Under the pieces are notes generated by a model. The model was not told where the DNA came from. It did no database searches and saw only the letters and a list, made by a program, of their open reading frames with translations. Shown here piece by piece: positions 15,085 through 16,077 of a stretch of 64,000 bases of DNA. The stretch's first letter is position 1. Every line of letters begins with the position of its first letter. This DNA comes from Escherichia phage CCU7, in sequence record PV806175.1. One strand, given 5' to 3'. A program made the translations under genes and the position numbers.

Positions 15085-16077
15085 ATGTTACCTGTCGTCG
15101 GAAAACTTATTTCTCCAAAAGAACTGGCTGAGATTATTCCTTTGTCGGAAGCTTACGCATCACAAGTGGCTTCTCATCGCGAACAAGTTAATTCGATTAT
15201 GAACGGTGAAGACCCACGCAAACTTATTGTTGTAGGTCCTTGTTCAATTCATGACCCTATTGCTGCGGTTGAATACGGCAAACGTCTGGCTGAACTTCAA
15301 ACTCGTCTTCCTAATGTTCTGTTAGTGATGCGCGTTTATTTTGAAAAGCCTCGAACTACCGTAGGTTGGAAAGGTCTTGTAAATGATCCATATCTTGACG
15401 GAAGTTTTGATATGAACCACGGTCTTATAGTTGCACGAACATTGTGTCGTAAACTTCTACGTATGGGACTTCCATTAGCAACTGAAGTATTAGACCCATT
15501 CACGATTAAGTATCTTTCTGGTATTTTCTCATGGGTTGCTATTGGCGCCCGTACGACTGAAAGTCAGACACATCGTGAAATTGCTTCAGGTCTACCGATG
15601 TGCGTAGGCTTCAAGAACGCAACCAATGGTTCTATTAAAGTAGCTACAGACGCGATGTATAGTGCCGCCTGGCCTCATCGGTATATGGGTATGGACGTCG
15701 ATGGTACTGTAGGCATTGTTGAAGCTGAAGGTAATCAGAATACGCATATCGTATTGCGTGGCGGGACCAACGGCCCGAACTATCATTCTTCTGATATTCA
15801 AGAAGCTTCTAACAAAGCAAGGGCAGTAGGTCTGAATCATTATGTAATGGTTGACTGTAGCCATGCAAACGCTGATGGGCATTATAGCAATCAAATTGGT
15901 ATTGGTAAAAATTTAGCAGCTAATGATTTGGTCAAAGGAATTATGATAGAATCGTTCCTACATGAAGGAAATCAAAAAATTTCTGATAATATGTCCTATG
16001 GCGTTTCCGTTACCGATGCGTGCATCAGTTGGGAACAAACTAAAGAGCTGTTAACTTATATTAATAAGGTTCAATAA
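15085..16077 (+). CDS. 3-deoxy-D-arabino-heptulosonate 7-phosphate (DAHP) synthase, class I-alpha (AroG/F/H-like)
   Basis: 330 aa; signature stretches VVGPCSIHDP, KPRTTVGWKGL, GARTTESQTHREIASGL, FKNATNG, ILRGG align with E. coli AroG as recalled; RBS taagga before ATG. Confidence 0.85.
   Translation: MLPVVGKLISPKELAEIIPLSEAYASQVASHREQVNSIMNGEDPRKLIVVGPCSIHDPIAAVEYGKRLAELQTRLPNVLLVMRVYFEKPRTTVGWKGLVNDPYLDGSFDMNHGLIVARTLCRKLLRMGLPLATEVLDPFTIKYLSGIFSWVAIGARTTESQTHREIASGLPMCVGFKNATNGSIKVATDAMYSAAWPHRYMGMDVDGTVGIVEAEGNQNTHIVLRGGTNGPNYHSSDIQEASNKARAVGLNHYVMVDCSHANADGHYSNQIGIGKNLAANDLVKGIMIESFLHEGNQKISDNMSYGVSVTDACISWEQTKELLTYINKVQ

Follow-up and report, generated by a model that had tools for sequence, protein, structure and literature searches.

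DAHP synthase catalyses the first step in making aromatic amino acids. Escherichia coli has three class I-alpha isozymes, the Tyr-sensitive AroF, the Phe-sensitive AroG and the Trp-sensitive AroH, with which the phage enzyme considered here is compared below. In AroG the changes P150L, S180F, D146N, L175D, L179A, F209A/S and V221A confer feedback resistance, and the main chain of the inhibitor is bound by the side chains of Q151 (Q152 in AroF) and S180 (S181 in AroF) (PMC9529685). AroF becomes insensitive to Tyr through changes at P148 or Q152 or through deletion of Ile11 (PMC5791370) and, as cited in a further report, through N8K (PMC11843938). Changes in the pocket affect activity and stability as well; for instance, in Corynebacterium glutamicum AroF single changes at the equivalents of Q151 and S180 leave the enzyme less stable or less active (PMC9529685).

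A DAHP synthase gene is also already known, and widely annotated, in T4-like phages. A tblastn search of 50,697 phage records returned full-length synthase copies in 212, of which 139 are at least 95% identical and come from Escherichia and Shigella Mosigvirus phages, many of these being 100% identical to the protein described below; Klebsiella phages contribute 25 records and Acinetobacter phages four. For most of the phage copies the annotation reads phospho-2-dehydro-3-deoxyheptonate aldolase, DAHP synthase, AroG or aroF, and annotated members of the family include Shf125875 gp195, HX01 gp250, PEi26 ORF-234 and KLB31. PHROGs devotes an entry to the family (phrog_5045), filed under "moron, auxiliary metabolic gene and host takeover", and the Kanagawavirus KLB31 copy was named a putative auxiliary metabolic gene (AMG) in 2025, as a hypothesis only (PMC11845039). 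Full-text literature searches found no functional study, assay or expression data for a phage DAHP synthase. The initial annotation of the DNA studied here had called the gene unexpected in a T-even-type coliphage, which does not hold for a gene that is annotated in well over a hundred such genomes, has its own PHROG and has been mentioned in print. The interest that remains lies in the predicted natural deregulation of the enzyme and in the cassette-like population genetics of its gene.

Orthologues 55-77% identical lie in the pseT-cd interval of at least five other genera; those of Kanagawavirus (Entb_45, PEi26), Winklervirus (X20), Kagamiyamavirus (EcS1), Marfavirus (PWKp18) and Bragavirus (PM2) are 58-77% identical. 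The synthase adjoins cd, or lies no more than two small ORFs away from it, in all six genera examined; in Winklervirus X20, for instance, a cd.1 homologue is kept between the two. Ten T4-like IMG/VR contigs have the order pseT, synthase, cd wherever the flank is present. A distant copy in Aeromonas phage HJ05 is neighboured by a methyltransferase and an Acb2/Tad1-like ORF, which offer no clue to a pathway.

Position of the synthase gene between pseT and cd

The DNA analysed, which we call the window, is a stretch of 64,000 nucleotides from Escherichia phage CCU7 (PV806175.1). It belongs to Mosigvirus, and its closest record is that of LF82-4, 99.7% identical over 14394-16658. The features of the locus are as follows.

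13091-13990, plus strand: pseT (polynucleotide kinase/phosphatase), the upstream landmark; Pfam HAD_PNKP at 197 bits, and AAA_33
14669-14700, plus strand: early-promoter-like site between cd.3 and cd.2 (GTTTACA-N-TACTAT), from a consensus scan and T4/RB69 alignment
14728-14964, plus strand: cd.2 homologue of 78 aa; phrog_1504 at 129 bits, 95% identical to RB69 Cd.2
14965-15084, plus strand: spacer of 120 bp, part of the cassette described below, holding most of a 41-aa ORF and the Shine-Dalgarno sequence TAAGGA
15085-16077, plus strand: class I-alpha DAHP synthase gene, ATG start, 330 aa; from direct reading of the ORF, profiles, structure match and model
16077-16658, plus strand: cd (dCMP deaminase); Pfam dCMP_cyt_deam_1 at 92.6 bits, and orthologue annotation

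The pseT gene is syntenic with that of T4, RB69 and six other genera. The synthase gene is preceded by a good Shine-Dalgarno sequence, TAAGGA at 15074-15079, 5 nt 5' of its ATG, and its TAA stop at 16075-16077 shares one base with the cd ATG at 16077-16079 (TAATG). The initial annotation had reported the overlap with dCMP deaminase (TAATGA at 16077), and this reading is borne out, as is the shared orientation of the gene with the early nucleotide-metabolism genes. It had also stated that T4 has no such gene, and at this site that is so: in T4, cd.1 lies between cd.2 and cd, in the slot of the synthase, and the T4 annotation shows no DAHP synthase between pseT and cd. Tequatrovirus is absent from the phage matches listed for the synthase. 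The published T4 annotation is not known to include a DAHP synthase outside this interval either.

The consensus scan for promoters gave a match at 14671-14699, and an alignment with T4 and RB69 shows the cd.3-cd.2 intergenic region to be homologous to the part of T4 in which early promoter Pe133.3 is annotated (GTTTAC-N17-TA[C/T]TAT). The site at 14669-14700 likely drives cd.2, the synthase gene and cd, and early co-transcription of the three is predicted because of this Pe133.3 homology. A generic promoter and terminator scan showed no enrichment over shuffles, and the argument uses only the Pe133.3-homologous site.

Identity, active site and fold of the phage enzyme

The ORF encodes a genuine class I-alpha DAHP synthase, an assignment that follows from profile and structure matches, identical active-site residues and superposition of a model. 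Pfam DAHP_synth_1 (PF00793) matches residues 36-323 at 252 bits (cutoff 25.5), the NCBIfam equivalog for aroFGH (TIGR00034) gives 428 bits (cutoff 173), and PRK12755 is passed at 455 bits (cutoff 343), so that a chance match is out of the question. The phrog_5045 profile aligns residues 1-330 with its positions 8-337 of 341 at 606 bits. Direct reading of the ORF, Pfam, NCBIfam and the structure match thus all confirm the complete 330-aa class I-alpha synthase first proposed for 15085-16077. The motifs cited for it, VVGPCSIHDP, KPRTTVGWKGL and GARTTESQTHREIASGL, are present exactly; the fourth, given as ILRGG, is actually HIVLRGG. A KDO8P synthase or another TIM-barrel family, raised at the outset as the assignment to be checked by profile, is ruled out, since in NCBIfam only DAHP synthase models match, and KPRTT and the active-site residues are present.

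The label "AroG-type", on the other hand, was imprecise. The AroG equivalog (NF006723) failed, with 363 bits where 568 are required, as did the AroH model (NF009396) at 386 bits against 463. The best match among solved structures is E. coli AroF (6agm, E = 5e-105), with DAH7PS of Neisseria meningitidis and AroG of E. coli (4e-91) ranking behind it. When aligned with AroF, AroG and AroH of E. coli MG1655, the phage protein is 51%, 47% and 43.5% identical, respectively, and its Gly202 sits at AroG position 211, where Tyr-type enzymes have Gly and AroG has Ser. By these comparisons the phage enzyme is nearer to Tyr-type AroF than to AroG, and no other isozyme of E. coli comes as close as AroF. 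The phage enzyme branches deeply.

The metal ligands C53, H260, E289 and D311 correspond to C61, H268, E302 and D326 of AroG. The residues for PEP and erythrose-4-phosphate (R83, K88, P89, R90, T91, G154, A155, R156, K177 and R225) are likewise all identical to their AroG counterparts (R92, K97, R99, T100, G163-R165, K186 and R234), and these four ligands and ten substrate-binding residues are shared by E. coli AroG, AroF and AroH, the window protein and its seven aligned phage orthologues. The protein is thus predicted to be catalytically competent, condensing PEP and erythrose-4-phosphate in a metal-dependent manner. An AlphaFold model (pLDDT 88.5, pTM 0.89) superposes on the DAH7PS crystal structures 4hso, 1gg1 and 1kfl with a TM of 0.93 and an rmsd of about 2.0-2.1 A, and it shows the (beta/alpha)8 barrel with the type I-alpha beta6a/6b insertion, its extra strands being 198-203 and 209-214.

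The phage enzyme therefore shares with AroF (PDB 6agm/6agl) the class I-alpha fold, the metal ligands, the PEP and erythrose-4-phosphate residues and the Gly at AroG 211, and with AroG (PDB 1kfl, 1gg1, 1qr7) an identical active site. It differs from both at its ends. The N-terminus is 8 residues shorter than that of AroG and 9 shorter than that of AroF, the start being the residue equivalent to AroG 10, in keeping with the roughly 9 residues first estimated; the C-terminus is only 5 residues shorter than that of AroG, against an estimate of about 10, and the remaining missing residues are internal loop deletions. Relative to AroF, there are three short loop deletions and the C-terminus is 9 residues shorter.

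A remodelled inhibitor pocket conserved across the phage clade

The initial annotation had proposed a structural comparison with AroG to establish whether the allosteric site is intact. It is not: P150, Q151 and S180 of AroG (P151, Q152 and S181 of AroF) are replaced by I141, K142 and P171, and AroG positions 144, 148, 175, 202 and 209 are occupied by V, F, I, S and Y. The remodelled pocket residues of the phage protein are thus V135, F139, I141, K142, I166, P171, S193, Y200 and G202, so that, compared with AroG, S211, L175, F209 and A202 are changed along with the three inhibitor-site residues. D146, L179, V221 and the beta6a/6b hairpin are kept, as judged from the alignment and the model. 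The N-terminal segment that carries Asn8 in AroF (the N8/I11 region) is missing, D6/D7 of AroG are absent, and the model has no N-terminal strand; seven residues precede Leu16 in the window protein, as compared to 5-9 in phage-type sequences and 13-18 in cellular homologues.

This configuration belongs to the clade rather than to one phage. The I-K-P signature and the short N-terminus occur in 31 of 31 phage-type sequences, two of them being single variants (I-R-P and P-K-P), and I-K-P is found in all ten T4-like IMG/VR contigs. Among the nearest cellular homologues about 90 of 98 have P-Q-S and the rest vary mainly at 150; Q151 is invariant, S180 is present in 97 of 98, and none has Pro at 180. 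In a few independent viral lineages, too, both Q151 and S180 have been lost: HJ05 has A-H-P, a contig of 262 kb has P-N-P, and A-P-P occurs in two genomes of 1.9-2.2 Mb. The giant-virus MAG and other viral class I DAHP synthases in IMG/VR are, like the phage enzyme, virus-encoded with an intact active site; unlike it, they are only 40-48% identical, and most have a P-Q-S pocket and a long N-terminus. Some of them are fusion proteins of about 650 aa, and none lies in a pseT-cd context. The clade-wide remodelled pocket is possibly unreported.

Within the phage clade the pocket columns have a pairwise identity of 0.89, as compared to 0.62 for the rest (permutation P = 0.0001). We reject the idea that the allosteric site has fallen out of use and is decaying, as the pocket is better conserved than the remaining protein. 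Because the pocket has been rebuilt and is highly conserved, the enzyme is probably insensitive to feedback by Phe, Tyr and Trp, or else regulated differently. The guess at deregulation made in the initial annotation, which had appealed to the N-terminus, thus gains stronger grounds in the replacement of three inhibitor-contacting residues together with the shortened N-terminus. We note the parallel with engineered feedback-resistant AroG (P150L, S180F, D146N) and AroF (Q152I, P148L, N8K, delta-Ile11): the phage enzyme has natural changes at 150, 151/152 and 180/181 and lacks the N8 region. Unlike the engineered mutants, the phage configuration involves many residues and is clade-wide and conserved, and its insensitivity is a prediction from sequence.

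On balance we lean towards a feedback-insensitive DAHP synthase, specific to T4-like phages and probably transcribed early, that sustains shikimate/chorismate flux by way of the host's downstream enzymes. The synthase would be transcribed early, together with cd.2 and cd, from the Pe133.3-homologous promoter; its rebuilt pocket and missing N-terminal segment would keep Phe, Tyr and Trp from shutting it off, and carbon would still be pushed into the pathway even in amino-acid-rich conditions that inhibit the host isozymes. As the phage has just this one shikimate-pathway gene, the DAHP must feed host downstream enzymes. Candidate beneficiaries of the chorismate would be the aromatic amino acids, pABA/folate and other products; Phe makes up 4.2% and Tyr 4.1% of the residues encoded by the window's ORFs. 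If the enzyme is indeed insensitive, the chief point at which the shikimate pathway is controlled would be overridden by a lytic coliphage. Metabolic engineers might then also find a use for this DAHP synthase, in which feedback resistance would have been optimised by nature at several sites.

Several observations sit less easily with this preferred reading. The greater conservation of the remodelled pocket is unlike what a simply abandoned site would show, Lys at 151 could still contact a carboxylate, and D146, L179, V221 and the hairpin are retained. In addition, the destabilising or activity-lowering effects of single changes in C. glutamicum AroF mean that the combined pocket changes are not readable from point mutants.

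Alternatively, the phage might simply supply extra copies of an ordinary feedback-sensitive DAHP synthase with its regulation unchanged. The intact active site and fold, and the retention of D146, L179, V221 and the Tyr-type Gly at 211, are compatible with this; nevertheless we regard it as unlikely, as three inhibitor-contacting residues are replaced (at two of which single substitutions abolish inhibition in AroG or AroF), the N-terminal residues including the equivalent of AroF N8 are missing, and a copy switched off by aromatic amino acids would add little in rich media.

It is also conceivable, if rather unlikely, that the pocket has been re-targeted, the enzyme now sensing another ligand (e.g., a nucleotide or an infection-specific metabolite) and so tying shikimate/folate-precursor flux to phage DNA metabolism. 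Such a scenario would fit pocket columns that are nearly invariant across phage genera only 55-77% identical overall, a linkage to cd maintained in six genera, and a regulatory beta-hairpin that is present in the model. The conservation may equally reflect packing at a subunit interface near the active site, however (pocket changes are reported to affect activity and stability; PMC9529685), and the N-terminal segment that completes the inhibitor site in cellular enzymes is missing. The conserved pocket may, in other words, be structural or may bind another ligand. More speculatively, and with low confidence, we can imagine a pocket rebuilt and then frozen, either as a constitutive override of host control or for a non-aromatic effector that couples chorismate/folate precursors to the nucleotide machinery; if this were true, the very low synonymous diversity in Mosigvirus described below would represent a recent selective sweep.

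An old phage lineage and an accessory cassette

The synthase gene has a GC of 0.416 and a GC3 of 0.303, as compared to averages of 0.384 and 0.295 for the 51 long ORFs of the window and a GC3 of 0.50-0.57 for E. coli aroF, aroG and aroH. Its RSCU correlates with that of the other window ORFs at r = 0.87 (typical ORFs 0.82 ± 0.07) and with that of aroF/G/H at 0.12-0.37, in agreement with the phage-like GC content and codon usage first noted. The best 120 matches in a collection of 5.8 billion proteins run from 98% to about 55% identity for phage-type sequences, and the cellular homologues among them, from many phyla, are at most 55% identical. In 48 of 50 NJ bootstraps the phage-type sequences form a single clade. 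Comparisons between genera give saturated dS (1.2-2.0) and a dN/dS of 0.14-0.23, and the copy is full-length in all 212 phage records. The phage-like composition, deep clade, saturated dS and low dN/dS together support an old lineage, specific to T4-like phages and long resident in them, under purifying selection; recent capture from a host is ruled out by codon usage, GC3 and the distance from any cellular homologue. The gene is thus an AMG in the sense that it lies in a real phage genome, has phage-like composition and is under purifying selection.

These data bear on whether the gene contributes nothing to infection, being either a neutral passenger or a piece of host DNA captured recently. 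That some Mosigvirus phages dispense with it is what such a view would predict, but its codons are used entirely as in the phage, no cellular homologue comes closer than about 55% identity, the frame is intact with low dN/dS across genera at saturated synonymous sites, and 139 of about 150 Mosigvirus records have the gene. Selection and composition data largely refute this view, and we consider it most improbable.

Within Mosigvirus the history appears to be different, and the long residence proposed in the initial annotation, which holds for T4-like phages overall, gives way there to a recently spread, dispensable cassette. In RB69, JK36, JK42, mar005P1, moha and ECO111 5-P (11 records, six distinct phages) cd.2 abuts cd; these phages miss exactly the 120-bp spacer and the synthase gene, while the 139 gene-bearing records carry both. 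Moskry, with the gene, and JK36, without it, are assigned to the same species. Among five gene-bearing Mosigvirus genomes the spacer and gene are 99.1-99.9% identical in nucleotides, with a mean dS of 0.011, whereas neighbouring genes have a dS of 0.138 (pseT), 0.204 (cd), 0.117 (31.1) and 0.333 (rIII), gene 31 being low at 0.028; the synonymous divergence of the synthase is 10-20x below that of its neighbours. This cassette-like pattern, like the remodelled pocket, may not have been reported before.

The spacer itself suggests where the cassette came from. The 41-aa ORF at 14951-15076 matches phrog_15876 and, weakly, positions 44-76 (the C-terminal half) of the cd.2 family, and it resembles Cd.2 of the Kanagawavirus/Marfavirus type (SYLITIE.G...VES.SVY), unlike the Mosigvirus Cd.2 directly upstream. 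By this resemblance the ORF is the remnant of a foreign cd.2 of that type, from its 3' half. A short degenerate repeat, TAATGA(G/A)AGCTA, is found at both cassette boundaries. The simplest reading is that a 1.1-kb cassette from another T4-like lineage entered at cd.2/cd by microhomology-mediated recombination and spread recently in the genus; alternatively, the distribution might reflect secondary loss by deletion between the boundary repeats. The low dS is consistent with the recent spread of a useful cassette. That six distinct Mosigvirus phages, RB69 among them, live without the gene weighs against our preferred reading of a flux-sustaining synthase to the extent that any benefit would have to be conditional.

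RB69 is also instructive with regard to the possibility that the enzyme serves arabinosyl-hmC DNA modification, or another sugar pathway, by way of a pentose phosphate substrate or pentose-phosphate-pathway flux. The RB69 ORF055c-type arabinose-5-phosphate isomerase is also carried by several groups that have the synthase, namely Mosigvirus, Winklervirus, Kanagawavirus, Kagamiyamavirus, Proteus phiP4-3 and vB_SdyM_006, and putative UDP-arabinose genes have been described in the same Proteus phages (PMC8056088). However, RB69, for which arabinosyl-hmC is established, and JK36, JK42, mar005P1, moha and ECO111 5-P have the isomerase or the Mosigvirus backbone and lack the synthase. Klebsiella phages, with their 25 synthase records, have fewer than three with the isomerase (outside the top groups), and Acinetobacter phages have 57 isomerase records against four for the synthase. 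The KPRTT motif for erythrose-4-phosphate and PEP and all substrate residues are unchanged, and the synthase gene is unmentioned in three papers on the arabinosyl-hmC modification. The two genes overlap in part of their phylogenetic range, but an obligatory coupling is rejected, as synthase and isomerase each occur widely on their own and the DNA of RB69 is arabinosylated although the synthase is absent; any looser involvement in a sugar pathway strikes us as very unlikely.

The occurrence of natural Mosigvirus pairs with and without the gene, such as moskry and JK36, makes the question of its contribution to fitness directly testable.

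A cassette of probable recent spread, and its boundaries

Across five Mosigvirus genomes, the 120-bp spacer and the DAHP synthase gene that follows it (window 14965-16077) share 99.1-99.9% nucleotide identity. The mean dS of this block in these genomes is 0.011, far below that of the flanking genes pseT (0.14) and cd (0.20), which suggests that spacer and gene spread recently within Mosigvirus as a single cassette. Three features mark the edges of this block and the spacer itself:

14958-14975, degenerate direct repeat TAATGA(G/A)AGCTA, copy at the upstream cassette boundary
16071-16088, the same repeat, copy at the downstream boundary
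14951-15076, 41-aa ORF (phrog_15876) that fills the spacer and overlaps the end of cd.2

Recombination between the two repeat copies would be expected to produce exactly the cd.2-cd junction found in RB69 and JK36. In protein alignment the 41-aa ORF matches the C-terminal half of Cd.2 and resembles the Kanagawavirus/Marfavirus allele, and it therefore looks like a relic of the cd.2 gene of a donor phage.

Neighboring mosaic segments and annotations

The small gene cd.3 (window 14394-14669) has about 71% nucleotide identity to its counterparts in Shf125875, HX01, moskry, SCS57, JK36 and RB69 as compared to 96% in ECO111 5-P, and this disparity points to an allelic replacement inside Mosigvirus. 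Downstream, rIII (17471-17719) has a high dS among Mosigvirus genomes (0.33) and the 30.9-30.7 region (17720-19658) is just 78-87% identical to that of some relatives; judged from these sequence comparisons, the stretch from 17471 to 19658 is a further mosaic, fast-diverging segment.

Another gene near the cassette carries a conflicting label:

16660-16956, gene 31.1 homologue, in which Pfam detects a WYL_2 / Sm-like SH3 beta-barrel domain at 37 bits; it matches phrog_1086

In some records homologues of 31.1 are named “tail fibers protein”, a name that seems to have arisen by annotation drift. ARAGORN found no tRNA or tmRNA genes across the window (1-64000, all 64 kb).

DAHP synthases in other genomes

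The nearest protein-cluster representative (P0001, 98% identical) is labelled “[Escherichia coli]” by NCBI and is located on a contig of 170,875 bp; this contig is almost certainly a phage genome inside a bacterial assembly and not the source of a host gene. A distant homologue (38% identity), with an A-H-P pocket at the inhibitor-contacting positions and an N-terminal extension of 34 residues, is encoded by Aeromonas phage HJ05 (L011), a 79-kb phage that is not T4-like. A methyltransferase gene lies close to it, and it is adjoined by:

L011:5196-5543, ORF with an Acb2/Tad1 hairpin domain (anti-CBASS/anti-Thoeris sponge family)

Class I DAHP synthases whose pocket is of the cellular P-Q-S type occur in many giant-virus MAGs among the IMG/VR contigs. 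Several of the giant-virus enzymes are fusion proteins of approximately 590-680 aa, and an A-P-P pocket variant is present in two of the genomes (L092 and L096, of 1.9 and 2.2 Mb).
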